From an uncultured Acidimicrobiia bacterium (GTDB lineage Bacteria > Actinomycetota > Acidimicrobiia > IMCC26256 > PALSA-555): DNA of 64,000 nt. The notes under the pieces are model-generated. The model was given only the letters and a program-made list of their open reading frames with translations, had not been told where the DNA came from and ran no database searches. The number at the start of each line of letters is the position of its first letter. Positions within the stretch are counted from its first letter, which is position 1. Both the position numbers and the translations under genes were made by a program. Positions 2,706 through 53,731 of this stretch are shown in pieces. The stretch is from the NCBI GenBank assembly GCA_963731815.1, contig CAVSWW010000010.1:134252-198251 (forward strand), given 5' to 3'.

Positions 2706-3074
2706 ATGTCGACGTCGAGGCTGCCACGCACGCGGCGGGTCCTCGATCAGATCGACCTGGAGCTCGACACGGCACCCGGTCCGCTACATCCGGGACTGCT
2801 CCACCTTGACTTCGGCGCGGGAACGCAGAGCTCGTTGCTCCTTCCCAGTCGCAACCTCGAGCTCGACGATCCTGACGTCTACGCACCGTTTGATCAGTCA
2901 TACGACGTGCTCGACACTGCGATGTTCGAGTCAACCGAGGTCAACCTCGGCGCGCCGGACACCGAACCGGCTCCGACGGAGGTGCTGATCGGTGGCGATG
3001 AGGTTGCACCGACGCTGCCCCGGAGGCCGAAGGCATCGAATGACCGATCGGCAGCTCGAGCGAGCTGTCGCTAA
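2706..3074 (+). CDS. hypothetical protein (122 aa from ATG 2706)
   Basis: Distal part of ORF 2415..3074 with moderate GC3 (about 70% by hand count). It is acidic and has no motif I recognise. Its 3' end overlaps the stop of the convergent gene 3071..4174 by 4 nt. Confidence 0.3.
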   Translation: MSTSRLPRTRRVLDQIDLELDTAPGPLHPGLLHLDFGAGTQSSLLLPSRNLELDDPDVYAPFDQSYDVLDTAMFESTEVNLGAPDTEPAPTEVLIGGDEVAPTLPRRPKASNDRSAARASCR

Positions 3075-4174
3075 CGCAGGCTTCGCACTCCGCGGCGTGT
3101 GAATCCCCGACGAGTGAAGCCACGCGCCTCGAGGTACTGCCGATCGGGCCACACGATGGCGCGGAGGTACGCAGCGCGGTCCCGGGTGCTTGGAAGCACC
3201 CGCAGCGCTGCGAGATGCCGGAGGTGAGCACGGTTCGGTGCGACGTGCGAGTCGAGAAGCTGGAGCTCCCTCCGCGCGGGGACGTAGGACCTCGCCCAGT
3301 CGAGCAGGTCCGGAGCGTCGGTGAGCGCGAGTGTGTCCCACGCGTTCGTGAGGGCGCGAGCGAGGACGCATTCGGCGCGCCACCGCCGAGCCATGCTCAA
3401 GACGTCGTCGGACGATGGCTGAAGAACCAGCGCGATCTGTACGACGTCACGCAGGCTCATCAGCCGCGGCGGCTGGTCAGCGAGGACCGCGGCGAACGCG
3501 GCGTGCAGCAGCAGCTGCGGCGCGGGCAGCATCCAGAACGTCCGGTGGGCGAGCGTGAAGGCCGTTCCTGGAACGAACAGGTCGTCTAGCGACACGGTCA
3601 GTCCGAGGGCGCCTTCGACGAAGGTGCGGTGCACGTCGAGCTCGAGGGCGCCACGTGAGCGCAGCAGCACCTCTTTGCCGAAGCGTGAATCGAAGCCGCT
3701 TCGGAGCTCCGGGATGTCGCGCCGGGCGTCGACATCGCTCACGAGCACTCTGATCCCTTCGTCGAACGAGCTCGACGGGAGGAGCAGGTCCGCGTCCGCG
3801 AACACCCGCCACTCGGGGGCCGGGTACACGCTGTGCGCGAGCGCAATGCCCTTCAGCACGCGCGTCTCGATCCTCGCCGCAGCCAACGCGTCAACCGCGT
3901 TGAGAAGGAGGCGCTCGACTCTCAGTCCGTGAGCGTGCTGCCCGCCGAGGCTCTCGTCCAACGTGCGCCACTGGTCGTCGGTGACGACGACGGATCCACT
4001 CCGGGCCGATTCGCCGAGCAGGCCGAGCGTGCGCTCGCGCCCGCAAGCTTCGAGGACGAGCCCGAACTCCGCATCCGGGAGCTCCGACGCTGGCGGGTTG
4101 TGCTCGGTCGACAGCCCATGCGCGGCCACGCTCGTCAGCACGTCAGTGATCGCCGTGCTCGTCGATTCGGTCAT
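3071..4174 (-). CDS. uncharacterised nucleotidyltransferase family protein (NTP_transf_5 / PF14907-like)
   Basis: Intact 367-aa ORF. RVLKGIALAHSVYPAPEWRVFADADLLLP and LELDVHRTF fit the LKG...R..D.DLLV and DxH signature I recall for this family. Confidence 0.6.
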   Translation of the reverse strand: MTESTSTAITDVLTSVAAHGLSTEHNPPASELPDAEFGLVLEACGRERTLGLLGESARSGSVVVTDDQWRTLDESLGGQHAHGLRVERLLLNAVDALAAARIETRVLKGIALAHSVYPAPEWRVFADADLLLPSSSFDEGIRVLVSDVDARRDIPELRSGFDSRFGKEVLLRSRGALELDVHRTFVEGALGLTVSLDDLFVPGTAFTLAHRTFWMLPAPQLLLHAAFAAVLADQPPRLMSLRDVVQIALVLQPSSDDVLSMARRWRAECVLARALTNAWDTLALTDAPDLLDWARSYVPARRELQLLDSHVAPNRAHLRHLAALRVLPSTRDRAAYLRAIVWPDRQYLEARGFTRRGFTRRGVRSLR

Positions 4175-5465
4175 CGACGCATGCTCTCAGAGGTACCGCT
4201 CGCCCTCGGCCCGCGTCCCTCGCGACCCGCGCCGGAGTGCCGTAGGCGACGACGTGATCGGGGAGGTCGCCGATGACGACCGCGCCCGCCCCGATCACGG
4301 AGTGCGCCCCGATGGTGACTGCATGGACGATCGCCGCGCCCACTCCGATCGCGGTGCAATCGCCGATGCGAACGTTACCTCCAGTCGCCGCGCCGGGCGC
4401 GAGGCTCACGTGCTCGCCCGCGACACAGTCGTGATCGATCGACGAGTTCGTCCCCAGAAGCGCGCCGGCACCGATCGTGCACCCGTTGCTGACGACTGCG
4501 CCGGCCATGAGGATCGATCCGGGTCCGAGGCGCGCGTCGCGCGCGACGAGCGCGGCGGGATGGATCGCGGCGATCGGCGCAAGGTCTGGGCAAGCCGTGC
4601 GTGCGTGTTCGAAGACCGTCTGCCGTCGGTGATTGTCGCCGATCGCGACGACGAACCCGTCGGCGTGCGCCATCTCCGCGGCGCCTGTGAGGTCATCGTC
4701 GGAACCAAGCACAGGGTGTCCGCTGACGTCTGATCCGACGGGCAGTGCGGCGTCGAGCACACCAACAACGACGTGCTCGCCCCCTGCTTCGACGGCGTCG
4801 ATGACCTGCCGTCCCTGGTCGGACCCGCCGACGACGAGCACACGTCGGCTCACGCGCGACCTGCCTGCGCTCCGTCGCTCCCCCGACGGCCCTCGAACCG
4901 CGGCATGGTCTGCATCACCGGGCGCCGCGACACCGCGACCCGTGAAGACCGTCGCGACCGTGAGTCCGATGATCTTGAGGTCGAGCACCATCGACTGGTG
5001 ATCGACGTACCACACGTCGAGTGCCAGCTTGTCGTCCCACCTCAATGCGTTTCGGCCCTTCACCTGTGCCCACCCTGTGATGCCCGGCCGTACGTCGTGG
5101 CGTCGCCGTTGCGCCGGCGAGTAAAGCGGGAGGTACTCCATAAGCAGCGGTCGGGGCCCGACGAGGCTCATGTCACCGCGCACAACGTTGGTCAGCTCTG
5201 GCAGCTCGTCGAGGCTCGTTCGGCGCAGTCCGCGACCGAGTTTCGTAAGTCGCTCGGCGTCCGGTGCCGCGCCTTCGCGCATAGTGCGGAACTTGACGAC
5301 CGTGAACGGTGCGCCGTCTCGACCCGGGCGCTCTTGGCGGAAGAGCACCGGCGACCCGAGTTTGATGCGAACGAGAAGCGCGACGAACGCGAACACCGGC
5401 GAGAGGACGACGAGCAGCAGCGATGCCGTCACCACGTCGAAAGTCCTCTTGGTCACCTTGCGCAT
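4143..5465 (-). CDS. fused phosphoglycosyl transferase (PglC/WbaP C-terminal type) and NeuD/PglD-like hexapeptide acetyltransferase
   Basis: ORF 4143..5555, read from MRKVTKRTFD. The N-terminal half has a TM helix, PVLFRQERPG, VVKFRTM, DELPEL, SLVGPRP and PGITGWAQV. The C-terminal half has VLVVGGSDQGRQV, AIGDN and left-handed beta-helix repeats (GAVVSNGCTIGAGALLG...). There is no stop between the two halves. Confidence 0.8.
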   Translation of the reverse strand: MRKVTKRTFDVVTASLLLVVLSPVFAFVALLVRIKLGSPVLFRQERPGRDGAPFTVVKFRTMREGAAPDAERLTKLGRGLRRTSLDELPELTNVVRGDMSLVGPRPLLMEYLPLYSPAQRRRHDVRPGITGWAQVKGRNALRWDDKLALDVWYVDHQSMVLDLKIIGLTVATVFTGRGVAAPGDADHAAVRGPSGERRSAGRSRVSRRVLVVGGSDQGRQVIDAVEAGGEHVVVGVLDAALPVGSDVSGHPVLGSDDDLTGAAEMAHADGFVVAIGDNHRRQTVFEHARTACPDLAPIAAIHPAALVARDARLGPGSILMAGAVVSNGCTIGAGALLGTNSSIDHDCVAGEHVSLAPGAATGGNVRIGDCTAIGVGAAIVHAVTIGAHSVIGAGAVVIGDLPDHVVAYGTPARVARDAGRGRAVPLRACVDDRIDEHGDH

Positions 5466-5535
5466 CGTCACACCGTTCGCCCCCGGGTATCGTAGGTGTG
5501 GTGCCTGCGCGCGGATCCTCCTCACGGTCCCCGAG

Positions 5536-6614
5536 GTGTCCGATGTCGAACGCAAGCTCCTCTTGGAGGCATTCGACTCGAACTGGATCGCACCGCTCGG
5601 CCCGCAAGTCGATGCGTTCGAAGCGGAGTTCGCCGCCTACCTCGGCATCGACCACGCGGTCGCGCTGTCGAGCGGCACCGCCGGCCTGCACCTCGCGCTC
5701 GTGCTGCTCGGCGTCGGCCCCGGCGACGAGGTGATCGTGCCCGACGCTGACGTTCGCGGCGACGTGCGAACGCCGTCACGTACGTCGGCGGCGCAGCCGG
5801 TGTTCCTCGACAGCGAACCGAGACGGCGTGGAACCTCGACCCCGAACTCCTCGGCCGCGGAGCTCGACGAGCGGGCCGGACGCGGCCGGCTGCCGGCGGC
5901 GGTGATCGCCGTCGACCTGTACGGTCAATGCGCCGACTACGACCCGATCGTCGACTGCGTGCGGTCGCCACGGCGTGCCGCTGATCGAGGACGCGGCCGA
6001 GGCACTCGGTGCCAACTACCGGGGCAATCCGGCCGGGACGTTCGGCGACTATCGGCGTGTTCTCGTTCAACGGCAACAAGATCATCACGACCAGCGGTGG
6101 CGGGATGCTCGTGGCCGACGCGATGCCGACTGGCCGAGCGAGCCCGCACACCTCGCGGCGCAGGCCCGCGACCCTGCGCTCGCACTACGAGCACTCGCGA
6201 GATCGGCTTCAACTACCGGCTGAGCAACCTGCTCGCTGCGCTCGGCCGTGCGCAGCTCGCCGGGCTCGCCTGCCAAGGTCGCCCGTCGTCGTGAGACCAA
6301 GCAGCAGTACCGGGCCGCGTTCGCCGACATCGATGCAATTGATTTCATGCCCGAACGCGAAGTTCGGCGAGCCGACGAACTGGCTCACTGTCGCCACGAT
6401 CGACGAGTGCGAGTTTGGCGCATCGCCGCGAGCAGGTCCGGGTGCAGTTGGATCGGCACGAGATCGTGGCTCGCCCCGCCTGGAAACCGATGCACATGCA
6501 GCCGGTATTTGCCAGCTGCCCGGTGCTGGGCGGCGGGGTCGCCGAAGCGATCTTCGGGACGGACTGTGCCTCCCTGGCGGCGCGGGAATGCCCCAGCACG
6601 ACCTCACGCGGTAG
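5536..6614 (+). CDS. DegT/DnrJ/EryC1/StrS-family sugar aminotransferase (PglE-like); at least four apparent frameshifts and an in-frame TAG at 6612
   Basis: Pieces lie in three frames: VPEVSDVERKLLLEAFDSNWIAPLGPQVDAFEAEFAAYLG...ALSSGTAGLHLAL, PLIEDAAEALGANYRGNPAGTFGD, VFSFNGNKIITTSGGGMLV (PLP-lysine context), EIGFNYRLSNLLAALGRAQL and WKPMHMQPVF. Protein-like sequence (IDALLTTSGGS) continues in frame after the TAG, up to about 6650. Confidence 0.75.
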
Positions 6615-7607: not shown

Positions 7608-7684
7608 CCGCTACTCATCATTGTCGATCGAGTCCTCCCAACGGCGCTACTTCGAACGGCGCACCCGGTCTGAACTCGCGCCGT

Positions 7685-15552: not shown

Positions 15553-16416
15553 GCTCGTGTGCGCGCCTCCACATGCTGGGCGGCAGCGAGAGCCCGAGGC
15601 GCCTTCGGGTCGGGCGGATGGAGCGTATGTAGTGCTTGCCCACGCGCAAGCGTGGCCACCGACGCGCCGACCGAAGGAAGCTGCGACGCGCGAGCCCGTG
15701 ATCGCCCGCGGCGGCCGCGCCGATTCCGAGCCGGAAGTATCGGAACGCTGCGGCGCGTGGATGACGCTGGAACCAATCCCGGTGGAGGTCCAGCATGCGG
15801 AGCGTTGACTCGATGCGCGCGTCCTGGCTGTTGCGTACCCGGAGGCCCCGGTGACGGCGGATTATATGATGAACCTCAGGGACCGTCTCCACAGGCCATT
15901 TGCCCGCCATCCGGATCCACCACTCGACGTCTGCGGATGCGGGGAAGCGCTCGTCGAAGGGGAGAAACGCATCTCGACGCACGGCGGTTGCGCCGAGGTT
16001 CGGTGTCGTGGCGTCGAGGATCACGTCGCCGACGTCGCCTGTCAACATGCGGCCTGGCTTCGGGGGAGCGTCGTGATAGCGGCTCCAGCAGATGACGACG
16101 GGTGAACGCTCCAGAGCGGCGAGCACGGTCTCGAGGTGACCACGTCGTACCAATCGTCATCATCGAGGAACGTCAAGTACCGTCCCTGGGCGCGGGCGAC
16201 ACCGCTGTTGATCGCTGCCCCTTGGCCGCCGCCGACGGATCGCTCCCAGAGGCTTATTCGGCCGTCGGCCGGCAGCTCACCCACATCGCCACCCGCATCG
16301 TCCACGACGATGATCTCGACGTCACTGACGGTCTGCGCGAGCACTGACTCGACCGCTTCGCGGAGCAGAGCAGCGGCTCGGCGGAAGGTGGGGATGATCA
16401 CACTGAAGAGCGGCAC
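15545..16416 (-). CDS. GT2-family glycosyltransferase; one apparent frameshift near 16120
   Basis: Begins MPLFSVIIPTFRRAAALLREAVESVLAQT..EIIVVDDAGGD...GQGAAINSGVARAQGRYLTFLDDDDW. ORF 15545..16153 supplies the C-terminal half. Confidence 0.75.
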
Positions 16417-16428
16417 GCTCGCGCTTCG

Positions 16429-17276
16429 TCAGTGATAGCCGAAAGCCGTGGCTCGCGAATCCGCCACGGCCCGATCGAGCTCTCGAACGATGCGTTCGGG
16501 AAGCTCGTCACGATGGCTTCCGATCTCGCCCCGTCGTGTCTTGAACGACGCAGCTTCATCGGATGAGCCGGGTCTCAGTCTCGCTGACTGGAAGACTCCG
16601 TCCTGCTCGTACTGACGCATGTTGTCGAACCGTGCGAACTCAACGGCTTCGGAGACAACTTCATCGGATACGCCCGACACGCCGATGAAGTCGAGCGCTT
16701 CGCGAAGGGACCTCTCGGGTTCGGAGTGAAGATCTTCGTAGCGGAGCACGAGCGTCGAGTCCGTTGACCGAACAAGGTTCCACCAAACGTCGTAAAACTT
16801 GAGCACGTTGGCGACGTGGTCCGGATCGCTCACGAACTCTTGCAGTGTTCCGGAATACGTTGATCGACGATAGCGGAACTGGTAGTACAAGCTCACGATC
16901 ACGTCCGCGGGTCTCTCACCAAGAGGATCAGCGGACGATTGCGGAACTGCTTTGGGTCACGCCAGTTGTCGTCGACTCCGTCGTGGATCATGTAGATCCG
17001 GGGGATGCGGGAGTCGTGCTCGGCAAGTCTGTGCAGTTCGATGACGCTCTCGTCGAGCTCGGTGCCGAAGTGCTGCTGGAGCGCCCGCCCGATCATGATG
17101 CGGAGCCACGTTCGGCCGCTCTTCGGGAACGACATGATGGTGACGTCGCCGCGCATCGACTTGTTGCTGGCTCGGACATGGCCGGGGACGAATCGACTGA
17201 TCGTCCGGTGGACCGGTGCGGGGAGAACCTGCCGGGTGAAGCGAGACGCCTTCCGAAGCATGACTGCGGAGTTCAT
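16429..17276 (-). CDS. sulfotransferase (ST1); one apparent frameshift near 16900; 5' boundary uncertain (17276-17330)
   Basis: IMSFPKSGRTWLRIMIGRAL is the PSB loop and LILLVRDPR(D)VIVSLYYQF is the 3'-PB motif split by the frameshift. The C-terminal 157 aa form intact ORF 16429..16902. Confidence 0.75.
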
Positions 17277-17289
17277 GGCGAGGACTCCG

Positions 17290-18090
17290 CAGCTGGAGAC
17301 CTGGTGAAGAACGCGGATTGCCCGCTCCATCGTTAGGCGGTCGGGCTCGAAGAACGCAGCGGCTCTGCTCGCGGACTTCGGGGCTACCGGCGATATCTCG
17401 TCGACCTGATTAACGTTCGCGACGGCGTTGCGGACACGCCGAGGAACCAGCCGATGCTTCATCAAGCTTCGCACGACCTGCGACCTGATCTCGAAGTAGG
17501 CATTCACCTTCGTGCGGTTGGCGGCGGACGCAACCGGTTCGACGACCGATGAACCCACATGCAGCAGCGAAGAACGCGTCGGGGGTGGTGCGGAGTTCGT
17601 CGAACGACAACACAGGCGCCGGGGCCGACCGATCGCCGTGAACAGCCTCTCAAGGTGGATGAGGACCGCGACGGCCAGAACACCGACGAGGCTTCGGTGG
17701 AATCGAGGTCTGCGCGACGACCTGCTCCCAGGGGCGGGCCTCGCGACCTCGTGCATGGCGAAGCCAGTAGTGCGAGTACGCGCGGTCCACCGGGTCACGC
17801 AAGATCGCGATGGCTTGCACCCCGGGGACGTCCGCAGCTAGGCGCTCCATCGCCACTGACGACGACAGGTAGCTCGGTGTCACTTCACCCGCACGCTGGC
17901 CGGCCTCTGCTGCGGCGAACCGAGACTTGTACCAGTCCAGGCCCCGGATGTAGTTCTGGTCGAAGAAGTGCATCTCCTTGGGCTGGACCATGAAGACATC
18001 CGTGTGGTCGGCGAGGTAGCGGAAGAGACTCGTGGAGCCGGAGCGCATCACGCCCACGATCACGAAGTCGGGAAGTCGTGCCGGGCCCAC
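17290..18090 (-). CDS. sulfotransferase (ST2), tandem paralog of ST3; apparent frameshifts; 3' boundary approximate
   Basis: ORF 17650..18090 contains LPDFVIVGVMRSGSTSLFRYL (PSB) and AILRDPVDRAYSHYWL (3'-PB). The C-terminal parts, LSFDELRTTPDAFF and NRTKVNAYFEIRSQ...AAFFEPDRL, lie in two other frames. Confidence 0.7.
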
Positions 18091-24350: not shown

Positions 24351-26365
24351 ATGGACCTTCTCTCCTACCTCCGAATTCTTCGCCGCCGCTGGGCGTTGAT
24401 CCTCGCGGTGACGATCGCAGGTGTGGCGATCGGTGCCGGGACCGCGCTCGCGAGCTCCAGCAGCGGCGACGGCGACCGCTTCTACAAGGCGACGCACCTG
24501 ATGTTCCTCGAAACGACCAGCGAGGACTCGGGCAGCTCGACGTTCCGGAACCTCGACCAGATCGCGCTCCTGGTGACCACCGGTGACACGCCCGACCGGG
24601 TCGGCGAGCAGCTCGGGCAAGACGGTCGCGAAGCTGGCCGAGCACGTGATCGTCACCACCAACTCCCTGACGAGCACGCTCGACATCACCGCGGCAGCGT
24701 CGACCGCGCGCGAAGCGGAGGAGATCGCGGACACGTTCGCCGAGGAGTTGATCGCGAACCTCGACGAGAAGGACCAGGAACGCTACAACGAGAAGCGCGA
24801 CCGCATCGTCACGCGCCTCGACGAGCTGCAGACCCAGATCAACACGTTCGACGCCCAGGTCGCCGGCGGCGGTGGCGACCTCGTGAAAGCGCAGCGGGAC
24901 GGACTGGTCAACCAGTACCGCGTGACCTACGAGCAGTTCCAGCAGCTCGCACAGGAGGGCAGCCCGGTCACGTTGCTCAGCACCCTCGAGGAGGCGACGC
25001 CGGTTCCGATCGGATCCAGCGAGTACGACGAGCGACTCAACCTCGGCCAGCTGGGAGAGAACATCAGACAAGCCGGCTCGACCAGCGACGACAGCAGCAC
25101 GGAAGAGATCGCCGGCACGTCGTCGAACCTCGGCGGACCAGTCGCTCGCGGCGCGTTCGGTGGCTTCCTGGGCTTGCTCATCGGCGGCGGGATCGCGATC
25201 GCCATGGAACATCTCGACCGGCGCCTCCGCACCCGCGAGGAGGTCGAGGATCTGTACGGCGTGCCGGTGCTGGCCGACATTCCCAAGCTCCTGAAGCAAC
25301 AACGTCACGATCCACAGGTGCTGTCGCACACGGCGCCGCTCTCGCGGACAGCGGAGGCACACCGCGCCGTTCGATCCGCGTCTGCTGTTCCAACACGTCA
25401 CCCGACAGACGTCGGGTCCGAACGGCGACGGCGTTGCTGCCAGCACTGCGTCGTTCGTCGCGCCCGAGGAAGGTGCAGACCACGCCTCGCTCGTCGTGCT
25501 GGTCACGTCGGCACTGCCGAACGAGGGGAAGACGACGACGAGTGCGAACCTCGCCGCGGTCTTCGCAGAGTCGGGTGCATCCGTGCTTGCCGTGAACTGC
25601 GACTTCCGGCGACCAACGCTGCACCGCTATCTCGGAGCCGAGCAAGAGCCGCGGCGAGTGCAGGAGTCGAACATCCCAGGCGTCGCGCTCGTGTCGGGTG
25701 TCGTGTCCGACCCGGCCGCCAATCCCGCCCAGGTCATCGCCGCGCAGCGTCAGGTGGTGGCGACCGCCCGCGACCGCTTCGACGTGATCATCCTCGATAC
25801 TGCGCCGCTGCTCACGACGAACGACGCGATCGAGATCATCCCGGTCGTCGACCTGGTCGTACTCGTTGCTCGACCGGGCGTCACCACCGCCGACGCAGCC
25901 GAACGAACCCGAACGCTCTTGGGGCGAGTCGACGCCCCGGTCGCCGGCGCAGTCTTCGTCGGCGACGAAACAGTCCCGAACGACCCGTACTACTACTACT
26001 CGCAGGCCAGCGGCGCGGCGGCGGCCTCGGCAGCCGGCGTCCCAGACCGGCAGCCACCGCCGGAGATCGCGGAAGACCTCGAGGTCGTCGATCAGACGGC
26101 ACCCGAGGAAGCTGACGCCGTCGAAGAACCCGATGTGGCCGAAACGGCCGACGAGGCCGACGAAACCGAGAACGACGAGAGCTTCGTAGCCTCGGCCTCC
26201 GAGCCCGCCATCGGGCCACGCGAGTCGGGCGTTGGCACCGCAGACCAAGACGAACCGACCGAGGAGATCGCCGCCGTTGCCACGGCCGACAACGAGCCAG
26301 ATGCGGAGCGCGAGCTCGAGTCGAAGCCGCGTCGCAAGAAGCGGCGGTTTCGGCGCTCAAACTGA
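24351..26365 (+). CDS. Wzz-domain polysaccharide co-polymerase fused to BY-type tyrosine kinase (Wzc/CapAB-like); two or more apparent frameshifts
   Basis: The N-terminal TM is WALILAVTIAGVAIGAG, followed by a coiled periplasmic region and a second TM, GFLGLLIGGGIAIAM. Kinase motifs are Walker A VTSALPNEGKTTTSANLA, A' LAVNCDFRRP and Walker B VIILDTAPL. A Tyr cluster NDPYYYYSQ is followed by an acidic tail of about 130 aa. Confidence 0.8.
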
Positions 26366-26499
26366 GCGAAGGGATACGGAACTTGACCACGCTTCGTGAT
26401 CCAATGGGAAGCTCTCGCCACGATAGGGTTGCCGGGAAACCCTGGGGCGGGTAGGGTGCGCGCGACTGAGTGGTCGAAGGGCAAGGACTGGGACGCAAA

Positions 26500-27009
26500 A
26501 TGGCTGGAACCGACGTGGGTGAGCCCGGGCGCACTGGTGTCGATCGTCGAACGCTGATTCGGCGCGCCGCCGTCGTGGGAGCCGCGGCATGGACCGCGCC
26601 CGTCATCATCGGAAGCCTGACCTCACCGGCTGCCGCGGTCACTGGCCCGCTGGGGTGCACCATCGTTTGCTTCAACGGTGGAAACTGCGGCTTCGATCAG
26701 AACGGCGCGACCTGTGCTCCCAACACCCCCGCGGCAATGCACTACCACCAACAACGAACAAGCGGTACAATGCATTTCCGTGGAGCTGCGGCGGTGGAGG
26801 CTGTAAGTGTCAGGGCGCGACACCGATCACGGTGAGCGTTCTCGCCGGTTGTTCCGGCTGCACGATTGCCGGCCTACTCGATCAACGCCAATCCGCAGGG
26901 TGGTTGCCCGGTTGGTACCGCACTCCACATCCCGGCTTCCGCCGAACTCGACTCCCCCGCGCCAGGCACCAACTACAACCAGTTCTGCGTCGCCCTGGTC
27001 TGCGGCTAG
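26500..27009 (+). CDS. Tat-signal Cys/Gly-rich secreted protein. Either one frameshifted gene of about 170 aa, or a 111-aa gene (26500..26835) plus a short downstream peptide ORF ending at 27009.
   Basis: From ATG 26500 the ORF has a twin-arginine signal, VDRRTLIRRAAVVGAAAWTAPVII...PAAA. It then reads GPLGCTIVCFNGGNCGFDQNGATCAPNTP. Another frame gives SCGGGGCKCQGATPITVSVLAGCSGCTIAG. The original frame resumes with YSINANPQGGCPVGTALHIPASAELDSPAPGTNYNQFCVALVCG and a stop at 27007-27009. Confidence 0.45.
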
Positions 27010-27028
27010 CGGCGCAGAACCGGGCTTC

Positions 27029-27889
27029 ATGTCGCTTCGGTCTTGGTCGACGAGTCCGTTCGACGTGCTCGGCTTCCGCTTCCAACTTCGCTGTGACGAC
27101 CGAAACCTGACGGCGCACGTCGATGAGCTCTTTTCGGGGTTTGCCGATTCGAGGCCAGCGCTGCATCAGTACCAGCTCAGCGCCATCGAGCACCCGACCG
27201 GACGGGTGGGTTACGAGTTGAGCCTCGATGGCGATCGGTTGTTCGAGGCGGAGGTTCCGAAGCGTTTGGTCGGATCACTCGTCCGGGACATCAATCGACG
27301 GGCTGTCGAGGGGGCGCGCGAGTTCGTTCTCCACGCGAGCGGTGTTGAGCATCGGGGAAGTGGTGTGGTCTTCCCAGCGCCGATGGAGTCGGGCAAGACC
27401 ACGCTTGCTGCCGGGCTCGTCCGAGAGGGGCTTGCCTATTTGACGGACGAGGCGATCGCGATCGAGCCCGCGACGCACGTCGTCAAGCCCTATCCGAAGC
27501 CACTGTCGATAGATCGCGGCTCCTGGAGCCTGTTCCCCGACTTGAGGTCGCTTGCAGACCCAAACGGCGACGAGACCGAACAGTGGCAGGTGGCACCGCA
27601 GTGCGTCGGCAGGATTGGTCGGGCTTGTCCGATCAATGTGATCGCTTTCGTCCAATACACGCCATGGGGGGAAACGGAGCTCGTCTCAATCACTCGCCCC
27701 GAGGCGCTCATCGAGCTCACGAAGAACACCTTCCGGTTCGACGCGCGACCGAGAGCATCGCTCGACCTGCTCACCGAAGTTGTGCGCGCGGCCGACTGTT
27801 ACCGCTTCACGATTGCCGACCTGCAGGAGGCTGTCGAGCTCGTGTTCAACCTCCTCGGTGTCACGACAACGGCGCAGGAACCTCGGTGA
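27029..27889 (+). CDS. HPr kinase/phosphorylase C-terminal-domain-like P-loop protein (HprK-related)
   Basis: Read from ATG 27029 in ORF 26807..27889. FVLHASGVEHRGSGVVFPAPMESGKTTLAAGLVREGLAYLTDEAIAIEP matches the HprK-like lHa..v...G.gv.f.G.sG.GKtTla..L...G...l.D. pattern. There are no frameshifts. Confidence 0.7.
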   Translation: MSLRSWSTSPFDVLGFRFQLRCDDRNLTAHVDELFSGFADSRPALHQYQLSAIEHPTGRVGYELSLDGDRLFEAEVPKRLVGSLVRDINRRAVEGAREFVLHASGVEHRGSGVVFPAPMESGKTTLAAGLVREGLAYLTDEAIAIEPATHVVKPYPKPLSIDRGSWSLFPDLRSLADPNGDETEQWQVAPQCVGRIGRACPINVIAFVQYTPWGETELVSITRPEALIELTKNTFRFDARPRASLDLLTEVVRAADCYRFTIADLQEAVELVFNLLGVTTTAQEPR

Positions 27890-28452
27890 CACACTCGAAT
27901 GAGCGTTCCTTTCGCGAGACATCCGTCCCAGCCCGGTCAGCTGCGGTACATGCGGTCGAGGTCGATGGTGAGGCGGTGCTGCTCGACGAAGTTGCAAACC
28001 GGCTCCATCACCTCAACGGCACCGCCACACTCGTGTGGAGCTGCTTGGATGGCATCTCGACCATCGACGAGATCGCGAAGGATGTAAGCGACGAGCTCGA
28101 TCTTCCGCACGCGCAGGTGCTGGCCGACATCCTGGAACTCACGTGCGAGCTCGGGGAGCAGGGACTGCTGGCTGTGAACGAGATGGCTCGCTGGCGGCGT
28201 CGGCCCGACGCGCTCTGGCGGCGGTCGCTGGACGGCGTGGTCGTGCTGCCGGCAGATGGCGACGCGCCGGTCTCCCTCGAAGGCACCGGTCCTGCCCTCT
28301 GGGACCTGCTGGCCGAAGCGAACGACGTCGAAGCGCTCGCCCGCAAGCTCGCCGGCGAGCACGGCACGGACCCCGCGGTCGTCGCGGCTGACATCGAGCC
28401 CGTGCTCGAGGACCTCGAAGCGGCCGGGGCGTTGGAACGCGTGCCGAACTAG
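27886..28452 (+). CDS. protein with two tandem PqqD-family (RRE-type peptide-binding) domains
   Basis: GTG 27886 overlaps the upstream TGA (GTGA). Domain 1 is AVEVDGEAVLLDEVANRLHHLNGTATLVWSCLDGISTIDEIAKDVSDEL...LGEQGLL. Domain 2 is RRSLDGVVVLPADGDAPVSLEGTGPALWDLLAEANDVEALARKLAGEHG...LEAAGAL. Confidence 0.7.
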   Translation: MTHSNERSFRETSVPARSAAVHAVEVDGEAVLLDEVANRLHHLNGTATLVWSCLDGISTIDEIAKDVSDELDLPHAQVLADILELTCELGEQGLLAVNEMARWRRRPDALWRRSLDGVVVLPADGDAPVSLEGTGPALWDLLAEANDVEALARKLAGEHGTDPAVVAADIEPVLEDLEAAGALERVPN

Positions 28453-28471: not shown

Positions 28472-29021
28472 TCAGGTCGGATCGACTCCCGGCGGCCACG
28501 CAAGATCCACGAGGCACGCGACCAGGTCCGCGATCTCGTCGGCGGTCTCTTCATGCTCGATTCTGGTGCCCCCAGCGGGGTCGGCGACGTCGTCGTCGAG
28601 CGACGCTCCGAGCAGGTCCTGGGTCCGGCGCCCCTGGTGCACCCGCCGCGAGCCACTCTGCAAGTGGCTCGCTGCTGCGGCGCCGGCCCACCACCTCTCC
28701 GCGTCGGACCGCTTCCTTCAGCGTGAAGCTTCGGGGCCAGATGCTGGAATCGGCGACGACCGCGTCGCGGACATGCAGCCGCTCCATCGCCAGGATCAGG
28801 TCGAAGGAGGCCAGGTCATTCAAGAGGATGCTTCGATGATCGCTGAGGTCGAGGCCGCGTGCCTCTGCGACGCTCTGCGTCTCCGTCGTGACCGGGTAAC
28901 CCGGATCACCAAACCCGGCCGAAGCGACGGTCGCCTTCACACCCCTCCGAGCCAGCGCCTCACCGAGCATCGCGCCTGCCAGCGGAGAGCGACACCGGTT
29001 GGCCGTGCACACGACCAGCAC
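28472..29021 (-). CDS. low-molecular-weight protein tyrosine phosphatase (Wzb-like); one apparent frameshift near 28650
   Basis: MLVVCTANRCRSPLAGAM carries the C-x5-R-S P-loop. The C-terminal DDVADPAGG (DP motif) lies in the ORF 28472..28663 frame. Confidence 0.75.
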
Positions 29022-29083: not shown

Positions 29084-29362
29084 TCAGGCTCGGGCAAGCA
29101 CCTGGGAGCGGCGCCGGGCGGCCACGACGACGATCCCACCGACGGCGATCGCAACCAGGCCGATCAGGACCAGCGACGGGGTGTTGTCAGAGCCGGTGAC
29201 CGGGAGCCGGCCCGAGGGTGCTCCCGGATCGGTTTTGGAGACCGTGACTCCACCGGGGGGCGGCGGCGTGTAGTCGTCGTCGGTCTGGGCAAGAGCGGCT
29301 GGAGCACCCAAAGCGACGGTCAGCACCGCCACCAGCAGCGTGATCTTCAGCAACCTGCGCAT
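29084..29362 (-). CDS. very small LPXTG-type cell-wall-anchored protein (92 aa)
   Basis: From ATG 29362 there is a signal peptide MRRLLKITLLVAVLTVALGAPAALA. A mature segment of about 35 aa follows, QTDDDYTPPPPGGVTVSKTDPGAPSGR. It ends with LPVTGS, a hydrophobic helix and an RRRS tail. Confidence 0.55.
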   Translation of the reverse strand: MRRLLKITLLVAVLTVALGAPAALAQTDDDYTPPPPGGVTVSKTDPGAPSGRLPVTGSDNTPSLVLIGLVAIAVGGIVVVAARRRSQVLARA

Positions 29363-29464
29363 CGCCACCCTCCCAGCGGGCCGGGGGCTATGACCCCCAA
29401 GACAGGGCACACTGTCGCACACTGGGGGGCCGGTGTCCACCGCGCAGAGTGGTCAGTCCGGTGT

Positions 29465-32400
29465 TCACGTGCCGGCTTCCAACCGATCCCAGAGATCGAG
29501 CGTCGGAGGCTTCGGCGCCACCTGCACCCGGATCCGTCGGTCACGATCGAGCTCGATCACGCCGGTCGCCAGGCGGTCGAAGGGCTGCGTCAGGCCTGGG
29601 GCGGCCGCGATCTCCCAGCCGTCCGGGCACCCGGATCGAGGCCTGGAACCGGTCTGGCACCAGTGTCGGCTGGTGATCGAGCGCGAGGTCGTACCAGCCA
29701 TCCGGACGTAAATCGACTCTCCCGGACAGCCTGAGGCGGACCGTTCGTTCGCTCTTCGCTGGGATCGCCAGCAGCTTCGAGTACACCTCACGGCCGCCTT
29801 CCTCGTGCGCCGTGAACTCGACGGGCTCTCCCTCGACCGTCATGCGTTCGATGCCGAGAGGGGTGTACACCGACACCAGCGCCCGGTTCTCGCCAGCGAC
29901 GAAGCTCTCGTCGAACGGGCCGATGACGATCTCGGGGAGTCCCGCATCGGGAGCGGTGTTCTCGAGTCGGATCGTGAGGCGTGCCTGCACCAGCGCGGTG
30001 CGTTCGTCGGCGTCGGGCGTGAGCCGGACCCGATACTCGATGCGACGATCGAGGTAATAGTCGATCTTGTTGGCCGCCGAGTTCTGCGTGTTGACCGCAA
30101 GCGCGTCGGACTGCACCGGCGCCAGCTCGCCCGCGACATCGAGCTGTTCCGCAAGCCGCTGCTCGTCGTCGCGGGCGAACGCCAGCTGGACGTGCCCCTC
30201 GTGGGCCGCGCCACCGAGGATCTTCGCGATCTGCGCCGGCTCACCGAGGCTCGTCGAGGTCGCGGTGTCAATCGCCTCCCGGGCGACATCACCCAGGAAG
30301 TCGAGCTCGGCCGGGTTGGTTCTCGAACCTCGAGTACTGGTCACGCAGGGTGATATCGACGACGTTGTTCGGCAGTGATCTGCTCCGGCCAACCAGGAAC
30401 CCGGATCGGGCCGGTGAGCTCGAGCAGCGCCGCGAGGCCGACCGGGTCGACGGCGATCACACCGTCCACATGGCCCAGCCCCACTTGCGGGGCAAGGCTC
30501 ATCAGGATTCCTGCCGCGGTCGGGAAGTCTTCCGAGAGGTTCGCGTCCTGCATTGCGAACTGTGGCCGGAACGGAAAGCGCTCGGCGAAGCCCGGCGGCA
30601 TGTCGACCATCGGGATCGGGATGTTCTGCACGGCCCTGTTGAACTCGGTCGGCTCGAACAGCTCGCCGAGACTCACGTCACCGTCGGAAGCGGTGAGCAG
30701 ACCCCAGTTGCCGATCAGGCCGCCGGTGGCCGCGCAGCTCAGCGTTGTTCTGCACGACGAGCAGGTAGTTGCGCGTCGCGTCCGCGCCGAAGATGGCCGG
30801 CGACAGCTTCGCGGCTGCGCGCCGCGCGGCGCGCCTCCCCCGCGGCTCGCCGGAGCTGGCGCGAGATGTCGTCACGCGCCTCTTCCACCACGGAGAGCAG
30901 ATACGGATCGTCGAGGTCGTCCAACTGCTCGAGCGCGTCCTCGAGCGCCCGGGCGCCATCCTCGAGAGCCGGCGTGACCCGCCGCACCTCCTCGATCGGG
31001 AGCCGGCCGTCGACGACCTCGAGCGTCGACGGGTCGACGGCAGTCGTCACGTTCTCCCCCGAACGGGCGAGGTCGAGACCGATGTCGGCGAGCGTCCGCG
31101 CGGCGCGGAGGTTCGACGCGAGGCCGGGCACGAGCAAGCCACCGCTGAGGAGCGGTCCGTGCGCGGTGTCGCTCGCCTCCTCGAACGCTCCGGCCACGCG
31201 GCGGAAGCCGATCTCTGCGGTTGCCGCGTCGCCCTCGCGCGCCGCAGCCAACGCACGGGCCGCGTCGCGCCTGCCCTCCTCCATCAGATCGCGGACGTCG
31301 CCGACCGCGATCGCGGTCGGCAGCACCGCGACGACGGCGAGGGCGATGATCGCGCCCACGACCACCCGGACACCACGGGGAAAGCCGCGCGCCGGCTCCT
31401 GCTCGAGCCGTTGGCGGGTGGCCTCGACGCCGATCGCGCCGACGATCAGCGCCGCCAGCAGCACGCCGAGCCATACCGGGAGCACGCTCCGCCCGGTGAA
31501 CACGGCGATGAGGACGAGCAGCAGCTCCGCGACCAGCAGCCCGCCAACAGCCTCGGTCGTCGACCAACGCAGCGCGACGAGGCGATGCAGCAGATGATCG
31601 CGGCGCGCATCGACCAACGATTGGCGCCGACGGAGCCGGTCGAACACGACGATGACGCCGTCGAGCAGCAGCAGACCCACGAGGATCGCGGGCACCAGGA
31701 GCTCGCCCGAGGGTTCGATCGGCAGGTCGACGGACAGCGCGCCGACCGCGAGCACGTAGCCGATGGCGAGGCGACCCGACCGACCGATGAACAATGAGGC
31801 AGGACGGAGGTTGAACGCGAGGAATGCGAGACACGCACCGGCGAGCCCGAGTGCGACGGCTGCCAGCGAATCCTGCTCGCCGAACGCGGCGAGGGCGAAC
31901 ACGCCGACCGCCCCGACGGCACCGAAGATCGGGGCGAGCCCCTCGGTGTTGCCGAATCCGTTCGCGGCGCCCGTCGCCAGGGCGATGATCCCGAAGGCGA
32001 GGAGCGCGTCGACGATCCCGACACCTGTTGGACCGGCTTGTGTCCCGGTCACCACTGCGATGCCCGCCATCGCGAGCACCGCAACGAACACGATGCGGTC
32101 GCCCTTGGGCTGACGGTCGGCGACTGCTGCGACGACGCCAAGCACGACCGCGCCGAGCGTTGCGACGAGTGCGCCTTCACCGAAAGTTGGTGATGAGGCG
32201 AAGCCGATCACCGGCCCCAGGAGGATGAGGATCCCGGCACGCCGACGTACTCCCCGGTTTCGTCGTCCTCGGGATCGAGCCTCGTGGGCGGAGCGCCTCA
32301 GGAACCAGCCCAGCACCAGCATGGTGAGGGCCGCGAGCGCGAACGTGAGCAGCCAGCGGTCTCCGGCCGCGACGGCGAGAGGCATCAAGGCCGGCGGCAT
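29465..32400 (-). CDS. MraY/WecA-like polytopic domain fused to a DUF4012 extracytoplasmic domain; several apparent frameshifts in the DUF4012 part
   Basis: ORF 30739..32400 covers about 330 aa with roughly 10 TM helices, and continues in the same frame into the DUF4012 N-terminus. DUF4012 blocks include IFGADATRNYLLVVQNNAELRG (ORF 30678) and HVDGVIAVDPVGLAALLELTGPIRVPG (ORF 30341). The C-terminal beta-rich part is in ORFs 29541 and 29465. Confidence 0.65.
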
Positions 32401-37563: not shown

Positions 37564-37641
37564 CCGCGGACGTGCGCACCCGGCTGACCGTAGCGGTGCG
37601 CCGTCCGACGGAGCCGCGGCCCGTGCTGCAACAATCCAGGT

Positions 37642-38931
37642 GTGGGCAGCAGACCGAATCGCATCGCGATCATCGGCCAGGGGTACGTCGGGCTGGCGCT
37701 CGCGGTGCGTGCGGTCGAGGTCGGCTTCGACGTCGTCGCGTTCGACGTCGACGAGTCGCGCGATCGACGCTGCTCCGCGCCGGGTCGTCGTACGTCGAGG
37801 ACGTCTCGTCGCGACCGAGTGGCAGCCGCGCTCGCCAGCGGGCGGTTCCGGCCGACGCACCGACCCGGCGACACTCGCCGGCTTCGACCTCGCCGTCATC
37901 ACGGTCCAGACGCCGCTGCGCGACGGCGCGCCCGACCTCATCGTTCGTCGAGGCCGCGGGGCGCGCTCGTGGCGCGGCCACCTGCGGCCCGGCGCCTGCG
38001 TCGTCCTCGAGAGCACCACGTACCCCGGGACGACCGAAGAGCTGCTGGCACCGCTGCTGGAGGCCGAGTCGGGGCTGCGCGCCGGGCGCCGACTTCCAGC
38101 TCGGCTACTCGCCCGAACGCATCGACCCCGGCAACACGACCTGGACGTTGACGACGACGCCGAAGGTCGTCAGCGGCATCGATGACGCGTCGCTGGAGCG
38201 GGTGCAGGGCTTCTACGACGCGCTCGTCGACGAGACCGTCGCCGGTGTCGGGCACCCGCGAGGCCGAGCTCACGAAGCTGCTCGAGAACACGTTCCGTCA
38301 CGTCAACATCGCGCTCGTCAACGAGCTCGCGGTGTTCGCCGAACGACCTCGGGATCGACGTCTGGGAGGCGATCGGGGCCGCCGCGACGAAGCCCTTCGG
38401 ATATCTCCGCTTCACTCCCGGGCCCGGGGTCGGCGGTCACTGCCTGCCCGTCGACCCGACGTATCTCTCGTGGAAGGTCGAACGCGGCACGGGCGACCGC
38501 TTCCGGTTCGTCGAGCTCGCGAACGAGATCAACGCGCGAATGCCCGACTACGTCGTCCGTCGGGTCACCGACGGGCTCGCGAGACGTGAAGTGTTCGTGC
38601 ACCGGTCGCGTGTGCTGCTCGTCGGACTGGCGTTCAAGCCGAACACCGCAGATGCCCGTGAGTCGCCCGCACTCCGGATCGCACAGCGCTTCGTCGCCGC
38701 GGGCGCCGAGGTGCGCGCCGTCGACCCCCACGTCGTGCCGGAGCTCCTCGACCTCCCCGGGATCGGCGTCAAGCTCGTCGAGCTGACCGCGGACGAGGTT
38801 CGTTCAGCTGACGCGGTGGTGCTCGTCACCGACCACGACGACCTCGACTACGAGCTGATCAGCGGCATGCGCCCTACGTGTTCGACACGCGCCGCCGCCT
38901 CGACCCGAGGTCGAGCGTCGAGCACCTCTAG
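37642..38931 (+). CDS. nucleotide-sugar dehydrogenase (UDP-glucose/GDP-mannose dehydrogenase family, WecC/WbpA-like); several apparent frameshifts
   Basis: RIAIIGQGYVGLALAV is the Rossmann motif. QLGYSPERIDPGN and REAELTKLLENTFRHVNIALVNEL are also present. My translation gives FTPGPGVGGHCLPVDP (catalytic Cys). VLLVGLAFKPNTADARESPA is in ORF 38540. Confidence 0.75.
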
Positions 38932-39576
38932 CGCGTCGAGTCAGGCGCCGCGGCGCTGCGGCCACTCGAGGAGCTCCTCGAGCAGGTCGGCCTGCCGCCG
39001 GACGTTCTGCGGCGCGCTCTCGGCGGTTCGCCGATCCAGTCGGCGCCCTTGCCGTTGCTCGGGGTCTGAACCGCGACCGCTCGGCGTGCCTTGCGCGTGG
39101 TGCGGTCCAGGGCAGCATCTCGGCGCAGCGAGCGACGCTCGGCGAGCATCGCCGCCGCGAGCACCAGCGTCACGGCGAGCACGACGGCGGCCGGCGCGAT
39201 CGGCCGCAGTCGCTTCCTGTCGCGCGACCAGCGTGGCCAGCGCTGCGCCGGCGACCACAGCAGCGCGTCGCGAGCAACACCAGCATCAGACCGAGACGTG
39301 TGACGAACACGCGCCACGATCGTCGACGCCGCGACCGGCGTGCTCGTCACCACGCTCGGCGCGGGCCTGATCCGCTCCACTGAAGCCACCGGTGCCACCT
39401 TCCTTCTCCCCACCCGGTTCCTTCGGCTGCCCACGGCCGAGGCTTGACGGTTCGGGAACGACCACCCTTCGTGGCGGGTGACCGCCCGTCCGGCCACATT
39501 CTGCACCCAAACGTGGCCGCGTTTCACGCGCGTTCCGTGACGGGCCGCCACCAGGACGAAGCGTAAGCGGGGCTGG

Positions 39577-41283
39577 TCAGCGGGCCGCGAGGGCTTCGCT
39601 GAGCTCGTTCGCGGAGGTGTAGTGGATGGCCCGGACCGGGACCTGGTCGACCAGCGTGAGTCAGCTCGATGACCTTCGTGGCCACGTCCTCACCCGGGCA
39701 GAGCCCGACGGTGGAAGCGACAGCAAGCGCAGGGCGGAGAGGCTCGTCCGGCACGTCGTCGGCGTGTGCGGCATGCACGAACCAGGTCGCGAGTGGGTAC
39801 CGGCCCGACTCCACCATTGGGAGCTCGGTTCGCCCGAGGTTCAATCCTGCATCGACCTCATCGAGGACCGTCGCATCGTGTTCGACCTTGGGTGGCTCGA
39901 CGATGAGTTCGCCGCTGCGGACGTCGACGATCGCGAGCGGCACGTCGACCAGCGAGATGCCGAGCTTCGCCAGGCGCGGCTGCAGCTTGCCGATCCAACC
40001 GGTGAGACCGGCCGGGAGCAGCAGACCCCGCCCGTCGCGGTCGACGGCCGCGGTGGCCTGCACCCGCAGCAGGCTCGGGTCGGGCTCGGTGAGGTCGTGC
40101 GACAAGTAGCGAAGCAGGCCCGTGAGCACCCGGCGCTTCGACCGACTGCGCACGAATCTGCTGGGTGCCGCGGACGAGGAGCTCGAGCTCCTTGGAGCCG
40201 CTGTCGGGATCGGTGAGGGCGACCGAGTAGTTGTCGGGCACCCCGGCGTCTTCGATGTGTGCGCCGACGAGCAGCTTCTCGAGCAGCTCGGCGGTCGCCT
40301 CGTTGTTGTACCGAATGCCGACGCGGACGTCGCCGAACTCGAAGGCGGACGTTCCGGCCCACGACGTCTTCGGTCCACTGGTCGCGCCGGCACCGCACAT
40401 TCCGCCGGCGGCCGGAAGGTAGCGCCCCTCGTCCTTCGGCCAGCTCCACGCCCGCGAGCTGCGCCGCACGCTCGGGAACCTCGCGCGCGCCCATCGCGAG
40501 GTCGCCGACGACGCGCCCGTCGGCGTCGAGCACGAGCGCCGCCGGCGTGCCGAGCCCACCGAAGGGATCGACGCGGTCGGGCTTGAGCAGCACGGGCGCG
40601 CGCAGGCCCACGCGGTCGACGAGGACCCGGTTCGACGCCTCACCACCCGCGGCGGCGAGCACGAGCTGCGTGCCCACGGCCTCGAGATCGACTTCGAGCG
40701 CGGCGAGCGACTCGGCGATCGAGTCGCAGTAGCCGCAGCCCGGGTTCCAGTTGACGAGGTAGACCTGCCGGCCCGCGAAGTCGTGGAGCGATCGTTCGCT
40801 ACCGTCGAGCGTGGTCGCGGAGAAGGGCTCGAGCTCCTGGCCGTCCTCGAACGCGATCGGGGGCGTCGCACCGACCGCATCGAGATCGACGTAGGGCTGC
40901 TCGACGTCGACGAGCAGGCCGGCGTAGCCCAACGAGCGCGCGAAGCCGAGCACGTCGTCGTGCACTACATCGCGCGGGGCTTCCATCGCATCGGAGAAGT
41001 CGTCGACGAGCTCGCCGAGCGTCGCCTCGCCGTCGAGGAACTGCCAGACGAGGGCGCCAGTCGGGTTCAGGATCGCTGCGCCACCCCAGCGTCCGCCGAT
41101 GATCACCTGTTCGCCGGCGACCTCGACCTGGACGATCTCGTCGACGCGACGGGGCCTCGAGTCCTCATCGAGGACGTCGGGGGGGATGGTGCCCTCGCGC
41201 TGCGTGAGGACGAGTTCGTCGGCAGCGTGGTCGTGGTCGTCGTTGGTCGGCGGTTCCTTCTCGCTCCTGCCCAGTCGGCTCAC
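39577..41283 (-). CDS. multidomain protein: PqqD-like domain + TlpA/thioredoxin-like domain (CGYC) + HprK-like domain with non-canonical P-loop; at least three apparent frameshifts
   Basis: Read from GTG 41283. The PqqD block is VEVAGEQVIIGGRWGGAAILNPTGALVWQFLDGEATLGELVDDF...GYAGLLV. The redoxin block is FSATTLDGSERSLHDFAGRQVYLVNWNPGCGYCDS. ORFs 39858 and 39524 continue with FEFGDVRVGIRYNN... and LLRVQATAAVDRDGRGLLLPAGLTGWIGKLQPRLAKLGISLVDVPLAIVD, which is colinear with the HprK-like gene at 27029. Confidence 0.6.
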
Positions 41284-45194: not shown

Positions 45195-45271
45195 CAGTTC
45201 CCCCCTGTTGCCGTGTCCCTTCCGCACAGAATGCCCCACCAGCGCCCGCCGCGAACGTCGCGCGGACCGCG

Positions 45272-53729: not shown

Positions 53730-53731
53730 GG

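Follow-up and report, generated by a model that had tools for sequence, protein, structure and literature searches.

Gene Content of the Locus

The subject here is a run of three genes within 64,000 nucleotides (nt) of DNA from an uncultured Acidimicrobiia bacterium (GCA_963731815.1, contig CAVSWW010000010.1, positions 134,252 to 198,251), a stretch with a G+C content of 68% that we call the window. All three lie on the forward strand (table 1) and encode, in this order, a Cys-rich protein with a twin-arginine translocation (Tat) leader, an HprK-like P-loop protein, and a protein with two PqqD domains, that is, domains of the recognition element (RRE) type associated with peptides that are made by ribosomes and modified after translation (RiPPs). 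As a preliminary description made from the sequence alone had proposed, the trio sits between the genes of a bacterial tyrosine kinase (BY-kinase) and a low-molecular-weight protein tyrosine phosphatase (LMW-PTP) inside a glycan locus, a position that recurs in two related loci, L139 and L142, where the LMW-PTP gene also has the same position and orientation.

The HprK-like gene is an intact open reading frame (ORF) whose ATG start coincides with those of 31 homologues in the alignment, and its end overlaps the double-PqqD gene through a GTGA (GTG 27886–27888 over TGA 27887–27889); both the intact frame and the overlap had been described before and are confirmed on the sequence. Its sequence includes an invariant TDE motif and, as Walker A motif, APMESGKT. 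Invariant across the family alignment are H102, A103, G122, K123, T125, D140, and E141, and these H-A, GK[TS], and DE residues align with the P-loop region and the DD motif of HprK. Its earlier assignment as a protein resembling the HPr kinase C-terminal domain holds for fold and motif but less well for family models. The NCBIfam model TIGR04352 (HprK-related kinase A, an equivalog) matches over profile positions 93–277 with 81.5 bits (E = 5e-23), below its cut-off of 200, and the Pfam scan of the window protein gave no match, PF07475 (Hpr_kinase_C) included; the homologue P0014 reaches 16.4 bits against PF07475, below the 33.3-bit cut-off. A PDB sequence search returned HprK entries only, and these weakly (E = 0.1–0.5), over the H-A…GK[ST]…DD segment. 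The AlphaFold2 (AF2) model is confident (pLDDT 93.6, pTM 0.89); at whole length, Foldseek superposes it best on ATP-dependent phosphoenolpyruvate carboxykinases (PEPCK; E = 4e-6, TM 0.55–0.60), and its P-loop half on HprK/P (E about 1e-3, target-normalised TM 0.42–0.56). The protein combines a PEPCK-like P-loop fold with the Walker A Lys and an acidic pair (D140, E141). Given the confident fold model, the superposition on PEPCK and HprK/P, and the invariance of the P-loop and acidic residues, it is likely, as far as model and alignment can tell, to be an active nucleotide-dependent enzyme, which is HprK-like by fold and motif and lies outside the HprK/P family. Its relatives number in the hundreds and come mostly from metagenomes; a profile search sized the family at 2,224 clusters for E ≤ 1e-30, rising to 12,387 for E ≤ 1e-10. 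Precomputed Pfam annotation attaches the accession PF27840 to P0014, P0024, P0032, and other homologues, so that a recent Pfam family may already take in the HprK-like group.

In the next gene, PF05402 finds two domains (E = 4e-25, 88.4 bits, cut-off 23.4), at approximately 27970–28170 and 28198–28440, in keeping with the tandem PqqD domains first noticed there. TIGR04353 (HPr-rel-A PqqD chaperone) gives 25.9 bits, short of its cut-off of 35, and NF033530 also matches below its cut-off. Most relatives encode the two PqqD domains in neighboring genes of their own, which overlap by 4 nt, a single ORF with both being found only in the window, L039, and L056. In the window, an in-frame ATG (28183) heads the second domain and a TGA in another frame lies six nt upstream of it; the fusion could be real or the product of one indel.

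The Tat gene begins at ATG 26500 with MAGTDVGEPGRTGVDRRTLIRRAAVVGAAAWTAPVIIGSLTSPAAA, in which a twin-arginine motif is followed by a hydrophobic region and an AxA site, after which the frame fails. Its leader (26500–26637, ending …GVDRRTLIRRAAVVGAAAWTAPVIIGSLTSPAAA) is laid out as GVDRRTLIRR-AAVVGAAAWTAPVIIGSL-TSPAAA and is 53% identical to that of the homologue in locus L001; R7, R8, W22, and P25 are invariant among 39 leaders. The TAT signal models TIGR01409 and PF10518 do not match the window fragment, and relatives score close to the thresholds (16.8–17.8 bits vs. 16.7, and 20.7 vs. 22.7). A frame closing just upstream of the HprK-like gene, as previously reported, is real: it ends at 27009 with …NYNQFCVALVCG, although the gap to the HprK-like ATG is 19 nt and not 20. 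Proteins of related loci likewise finish in a hydrophobic strand followed by Cys (e.g., …NYTQFKFVLTCG), with which the window ending agrees.

Between these two ends, we scored the possible frame paths against a profile of homologues: three shifts gave 161.9 bits, two shifts 154.2, and frame 1 alone 117.8. The three-shift path passes from frame 1 to frame 2 at a run of five C (26727–26731), from 2 to 3 near 26780, and from 3 back to 1 near 26885–26900. The reconstructed protein has 168–169 amino acids (aa), and intact database homologues have 162–174; the closest, P0130, is 52% identical over 95% of the length (E = 2e-35). The alignment of homologues contains invariant Cys columns. The mature domain has 12 Cys if two shifts are assumed, which is the count first suggested, but 14 in the best-scoring version with three. 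The Tat-signal, Cys-rich gene recognized from position 26500 (DRRTLIRR, a hydrophobic stretch, SPAAA) is a real one, and many genomes conserve it beside the two other genes. A separate short peptide gene (TTG 26866, 47 codons), which had been offered as an alternative, can be rejected: its reading frame exists, yet the homologue alignment, the intact homologues, and the profile-scored reconstruction identify it as the C-terminus of the roughly 168-aa Tat protein. An ordinary enzyme 5′ of the kinase-like gene was likewise rejected, as was a lipoprotein, since a canonical lipobox is lacking, the first Cys comes 5–7 residues past the AxA site, and the family's even numbers of Cys indicate disulfides.

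The AF2 model of P0130 shows a beta-rich mature domain at moderate confidence (pLDDT 70–90), and a beta-rich fold is predicted for the mature domain of the window protein. A Foldseek search with the P0130 mature-domain model found no significant structural neighbor (best E = 0.1); the domain has the look of a small, generic beta-sandwich, with carbohydrate-binding modules among its weak fold matches. Pfam and NCBIfam scans placed the Tat proteins in no family, and exact database look-ups of the window's own proteins, which covered both ORFs as read here and a 168-aa version, returned no match.

Conservation of the Gene Set in Actinomycetota

We collected 56 genome loci of the kinase-like gene, all from Actinomycetota (Acidimicrobiia, including Microthrixaceae, together with Nocardioidaceae, Jiangellaceae, and Nitriliruptoria), with Nocardioides sp. 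GXQ0305 (L022) as the sole isolate. Local searches revealed a recurrent set in these loci, made up of a BY-kinase, a PF14907 nucleotidyltransferase, the HprK-like gene, and PqqD and Tat-type leader genes numbering one to three each. In 38 loci, the HprK-like gene is flanked by at least 3 kb on both sides; of these, 30 have a PqqD gene within 1 kb of it and 23 a leader gene within 3 kb (27 within 10 kb), while the 10-kb neighborhood holds a PF14907 nucleotidyltransferase in 33, a BY-kinase in 30, and an Asn synthase in 5. Asn-synthase homologues were noted in L001, L003, L021, L028, and L037. Two loci are especially close to the window in layout. In L139, the order is BY-kinase, a 470-aa gene, PF14907 nucleotidyltransferase, HprK-like, Tat protein, PqqD, PqqD, and LMW-PTP; in L142, it is that of the window, with a possible BY-kinase followed by Tat, HprK-like, PqqD, LMW-PTP, Gram_pos_anchor, and DUF4012 genes. 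It is in this syntenic locus that the closest Tat homologue is found, intact. In L001, sortase, TatA, and TatC genes adjoin the module.

The module is larger than the trio originally described, in that it also includes the PF14907 nucleotidyltransferase and a paralogue of the kinase-like protein. The window's PF14907 gene is 47% identical to the one that adjoins the HprK-like gene in L001; it lies 23 kb from the trio in the window and adjoins the kinase-like gene in most relatives. As for the paralogue, it forms the C-terminal domain of a PqqD–thioredoxin fusion (PF05402 E = 3e-10, plus AhpC-TSA/Redoxin) that was mapped as three pieces in the window and has an intact orthologue in L008 (12652–14331). 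This domain aligns with the HprK-like profile (hhalign probability 98.5%, E = 2.5e-15, 241 columns) and has no Walker A motif, and in many loci such a pseudo-kinase is a separate gene directly after PqqD. Pfam and NCBIfam hold no family for it, nor for several other conserved neighbors. Taken with the HprK-like–PqqD fusions found elsewhere (P0072, P0115), the PqqD–thioredoxin–pseudo-kinase fusion means that each kinase-like paralogue has a PqqD domain of its own, as is the case in RRE-dependent RiPP enzymes.

Some further features of the related loci may be recorded. The isolate's locus (L022, 9519–13735) presents an HprK-like gene between two PqqD genes, followed on the opposite strand by two or three leader genes, and an adjoining ORF there, with a CPQYCGHC motif, resembles by eye a KamA-type radical-SAM aminomutase. 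A conserved protein of about 325 aa with no Pfam family (L001 8807–9784, minus strand), containing a …IVIVDNRSRDGG… stretch reminiscent of family-2 glycosyltransferases (GT2), often flanks the leader or HprK-like gene; homologues occur in L002, L003, L005, L007, L023, L056, L090, L092, L095, L100, L103, and L135, and no copy was found in the window.

Leader and Mature Domains of the Tat Proteins

The leader family can also be followed from its own side. Metagenomes were searched with a narrower alignment of the leader only, which is blind to genomic context, and 80 contigs were retrieved, most of them shorter than 4 kb. A component of the module is present on 39 of the 80, leader gene and PqqD domain are within 500 nt of each other on 24, and 13 carry two to four leader genes. 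Against a protein database, the profile of 39 leaders matched 9 short fragments only.

Within these proteins, conservation is very unevenly distributed. Paralogues of the same locus (31 pairs) are 69% identical in the leader and 25% in the mature part, and between loci the values are 56% and 20%. The leader is more conserved than its passenger, which is the reverse of what is usual for signal peptides and is the pattern of RiPP precursors. Median values for the mature domains are 139 aa and 8 Cys, with an even Cys count in 110 of 121; a Cys stands among the last four residues in 70% of them. Ser or Thr occupies the +2 position after the PAxA site in 79% of the family, against 22% for Ser plus Thr overall.

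Wider Gene Context in the Window

The BY-kinase gene upstream of the trio was recovered by tblastn with the 607-aa orthologue from L001 as three collinear pieces in different frames; its orthologue in L139 carries the CbiA and ParA families. A Wzz-type kinase with a Tyr-rich tail, an LMW-PTP, and glycan genes are found together, as in polysaccharide loci of the BY-kinase/LMW-PTP type. The wider glycan locus contains glycosyltransferases, epimerases, dehydratases, Polysacc_synt_2, sulfotransferases, GNAT, and a GT4 (MraY-like) enzyme, and the right-hand 20 kb of the window is ordinary metabolism.

Table 1. Position and basis of assignment of the features discussed, in order along the window.
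Feature	Position	Strand	Basis
PF14907 (NTP_transf_5) nucleotidyltransferase	3071..4174	-	PF14907, E = 1e-18
Initiating sugar-phosphate transferase (Bac_transf) fused to PglD-like acetyltransferase	4143..5555	-	PF02397, E = 2e-60; PglD_N; Hexapep
BY-kinase (Wzz-like domain + P-loop Tyr kinase, YYYY tail), three frames	24351..26365	+	tblastn
Tat-leader, Cys-rich secreted protein, about 168 aa, frameshifted	26500..27009	+	leader motif, intact homologues, profile scoring
HprK-like P-loop protein, 286 aa, two domains	27029..27889	+	TIGR04352, AF2 model, Foldseek
Double PqqD (RRE-type) protein, 188 aa	27886..28452	+	PF05402, two stretches
LMW-PTP	28551..29021	-	PF01451, E = 2e-16
Small LPXTG-type (LPVTG) surface protein	29084..29440	-	translation; PF00746 (Gram_pos_anchor) gene at the same place in L142
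DUF4012 protein, frameshifted	29541..30871	-	PF13196, E = 2e-23; also in L140 and L142
PqqD + thioredoxin-like (CGYC) + Walker-A-less HprK-like paralogue, frameshifted, start approximate	39524..41230	-	Pfam, hhalign

Besides the small surface protein next to the LMW-PTP gene (29084–29440, minus strand; LPVTGSDNTPS…), a second product (41899–42873, minus strand) ends in a sortase-type sorting signal (LPFTGSNDTPS…), each of the two continuing with a hydrophobic stretch and RRR; the second also shows a weak FecR match, just under the Pfam cut-off. Sulfotransferase-domain genes lie at 898–1386 (plus strand) and 16432–17837 (minus strand) and hint that the polymer made here is sulfated; a sulfotransferase has been reported, too, for Firmicute lasso clusters that include kinase and nucleotidyltransferase genes (PMC8498205). 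Further along, at 47934–55791 (plus strand), three Amidohydro_2 genes stand among short-chain dehydrogenases and an acetoacetate-decarboxylase-like domain and are a separate catabolic cluster, a fourth Amidohydro_2 fragment being located at 73–387.

Interpretation and Rival Explanations

We read the trio as one copy of a conserved actinobacterial module of BY-kinase-type polysaccharide loci, in which Tat proteins docked on PqqD domains would be modified before export, a reading that on comparative grounds we hold with a little less than even confidence. From the genes, domains, fold, synteny, co-occurrence, and leader–mature contrast observed above, we infer binding partners, a chemistry, and an order of events as follows. 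The PqqD domains would bind the conserved leader in the cytoplasm, in the way RRE domains bind RiPP leaders, and a leader so bound would be kept, with its precursor, from the Tat translocon. The kinase-like enzyme would then phosphorylate a Ser or Thr, the +2 residue after the PAxA site being a good candidate, and, if the pseudomycoidin pair PsmK and PsmN is a guide, the phosphate may be extended by the PF14907 enzyme. The thioredoxin fusion would set or check disulfides, and the PqqD–thioredoxin architecture indeed fits a Cys-rich substrate being handled in the cytoplasm ahead of its export by Tat. Finally, the folded and modified protein would exit through Tat and have its leader cut off. 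In its fullest form, with the Tat signal doubling as a RiPP-type leader and whole proteins undergoing RRE-guided phospho-(glycosyl) modification and thioredoxin-assisted folding before Tat export, this scheme is possible but less probable.

Several observations weigh against this reading. The expectation that a Cys-rich Tat ORF always stands beside the gene pair is borne out within 3 kb in the majority of loci counted above, but 11 of the 38 have no leader gene within 10 kb, and one sub-clade, tightly packed as BY-kinase, PF14907 nucleotidyltransferase, HprK-like, PqqD, PqqD, and BY-kinase, is without a candidate substrate. Conversely, 7 of the 19 leader-first contigs longer than 4 kb have no module gene. 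In addition, the Tat-leader proteins end mostly in Cys or Gly, whereas lasso kinases phosphorylate a C-terminal Ser. The sub-threshold NCBIfam scores of the window genes count on the same side. Lastly, with its Tat gene and thioredoxin fusion frameshifted and its nucleotidyltransferase far from the trio, the window copy may be defective.

The alternative that survives best is that the polysaccharide machinery itself is what the kinase-like, PqqD, and nucleotidyltransferase genes work for, perhaps by regulating or modifying the BY-kinase, the priming transferase, or a glycan intermediate, the Tat proteins being co-located cargo, for instance polymer-binding surface or matrix proteins, whose leader is kept for Tat targeting or by recent common descent. 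We consider this doubtful, although it has real arguments: the tightest and most constant neighbors are the BY-kinase and the NTP_transf_5 gene, some loci having both with no leader gene; the locus is rich in glycan genes, with LMW-PTP and DUF4012 syntenic; and the beta-sandwich look of the mature domain, with its weak matches to carbohydrate-binding modules, would suit such cargo. It is because about a third of the loci have no adjacent leader gene that this explanation stays alive. What it accommodates poorly is that PqqD domains, known as binders of peptide leaders, are here fused to kinase-like paralogues, that leader genes retrieved blind to context often sit directly by a PqqD gene, that a signal peptide is far better conserved than its passenger, which is unusual, and that a cytoplasmic PqqD–thioredoxin fusion indicates a Cys-containing polypeptide client.

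Another explanation, which we hold to be rather unlikely, is that the window copy is a decaying, non-functional remnant and that its frameshifts are real mutations. Within 510 nt, the Tat gene has two to three shifts and the adjoining 1.4 kb (HprK-like and PqqD) none, which would suit decay and is a caveat to any reading of the shifts as indel errors, and many genes of the glycan locus are broken. Genes split over two to three frames each lie at 6348–7610, 7779–8975, 15548–16428, 24351–26365, 29541–30871, 37600–39400, and 39524–41230; they include the BY-kinase (three pieces), an epimerase, an ABC ATPase, and a GT2, as well as the DUF4012 and PqqD–thioredoxin genes. The breaks are spread over unrelated genes and at least 40 kb of the window, two of the three Tat-gene shifts allow a placement at, or next to, a short homopolymer (the run of five C at 26727–26731 and a GGG near 26899), and contigs of related metagenome-assembled genomes (L006, L039, L056) show the same kind of fragmentation. 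These three features favor long-read indel errors, and we regard sequencing indels as clearly more likely than decay; that the closest Tat homologue is intact in the syntenic L142 also speaks against a remnant. GC3-based gene calling performs poorly in the glycan island. A single stop-to-stop ORF at 43914–45713 (minus strand), which joins a disulphide oxidoreductase (pyridine-nucleotide) dimerisation domain to a family-5 solute-binding domain, is probably two genes united by a frame error.

If the modification module is what the comparative genomics suggests, it offers candidate substrates for RRE-guided modification on the scale of whole proteins: RRE/PqqD domains have so far been tied to short precursor peptides, and whole secreted proteins might be guided by them too. 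A docking protein in the cytoplasm would then read a second code in the Tat signal peptide. In soil and marine Actinomycetota the module is located in exopolysaccharide and surface-glycan loci, and for this reason the cell surface or the matrix may be shaped by what it produces.

Comparison with Known Systems

The nearest catalogued relative is the HPr-rel-A system of NCBIfam (TIGR04352 and TIGR04353), in which a remote HprK-related P-loop protein is encoded beside a PqqD-family protein. These two models are the best or near-best matches of the window genes, but the scores remain below the cut-offs (81.5 vs. 200 and 25.9 vs. 35), and the Tat-leader proteins, the pseudo-kinase, and the thioredoxin fusion fall outside the definition of the system, going by the names of the models. 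The window pair is best described, from its sequence relationships, as belonging to an actinobacterial sister group of HPr-rel-A and not as a member of it. The arrangement, which the preliminary description had supposed to be undescribed, is accordingly new in part only: the pairing of kinase and PqqD is already catalogued, whereas we found no description of its link to Tat-leader proteins. Our literature search found no paper on the HPr-rel-A system or on the function of the kinase-like family, none relevant on PF14907 or on an HPr kinase in connection with exopolysaccharide or PEP-CTERM, and none linking PqqD/RRE domains to Tat signals or BY-kinase loci; kinases are not mentioned in the RRE-Finder paper. 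The module could provide a concrete entry point to systems of the HPr-rel-A type, with one cultured carrier in Nocardioides sp. GXQ0305.

The only biochemical precedent that we can cite is the lasso peptide pseudomycoidin, for which the HprK-family kinase PsmK phosphorylates the C-terminal Ser of the precursor before maturation, and PsmN, an uncharacterised NTP transferase, puts a hexose on the phosphate (PMC6993621, PMC8498205). The module resembles this tailoring system, and that of paeninodin (PadeK), in having an HprK-like kinase and an uncharacterised NTP transferase encoded with PqqD, the PF14907 gene being likened to PsmN by its proposed role. It differs in being without cyclase, B2 protease, and short precursor, in its polysaccharide-locus context, and in its candidate substrates, which would be proteins exported by Tat, about 170 aa long and rarely ending in Ser. 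In line with what had been noted at the outset, Pfam scans of selected main ORFs of the window detected no Asn-synthase/lasso cyclase, transglutaminase-type protease, radical-SAM, YcaO, or lanthipeptide domain, and tblastn of the window with the L001 Asn synthase gave no match. A cryptic lasso-type or other RiPP cluster with the short ORF at 26866–27009 as precursor is therefore highly improbable and was rejected, no cyclase or leader protease having been found in these searches, even though the PqqD protein matches lasso-type chaperone models (below cut-offs), HprK-like kinases do tailor lasso peptides, and an Asn-synthase homologue accompanies a few related loci (a small minority of those counted), since the short ORF is the conserved C-terminus of a 168-aa protein and the 19-nt and overlapping junctions leave no room for a small gene.

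With HprK/P (PF07475), the window protein shares the fold of the P-loop domain and the aligned H-A, GK[ST], and acidic-pair residues; it differs in having no Pfam match, another N-terminal domain, and a better superposition of the whole protein on ATP-PEPCK, and no phosphotransferase-system context was seen around the gene. All in all, the module is neither a lasso cluster nor HprK/P, and we can name no RiPP class to which it belongs.

PqqD/RRE domains are binders of RiPP leader peptides, and the likeness to RiPP docking lies in PqqD domains that are free or fused to enzymes and in putative substrates that occur in tandem, their N-terminal part conserved and the rest variable; the differences are that the “leader” would be a complete Tat signal and the “core” a folded domain, and that no class-defining enzyme was found. 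TorD, DmsD, and NapD are proofreading chaperones that bind Tat signal peptides and serve cofactor insertion, and we know of no PqqD protein in such a role. The role proposed here resembles theirs, namely that of holding a twin-arginine signal in the cytoplasm until the passenger is mature, but it would be played by an unrelated fold, and on behalf of covalent modification instead of cofactor insertion.

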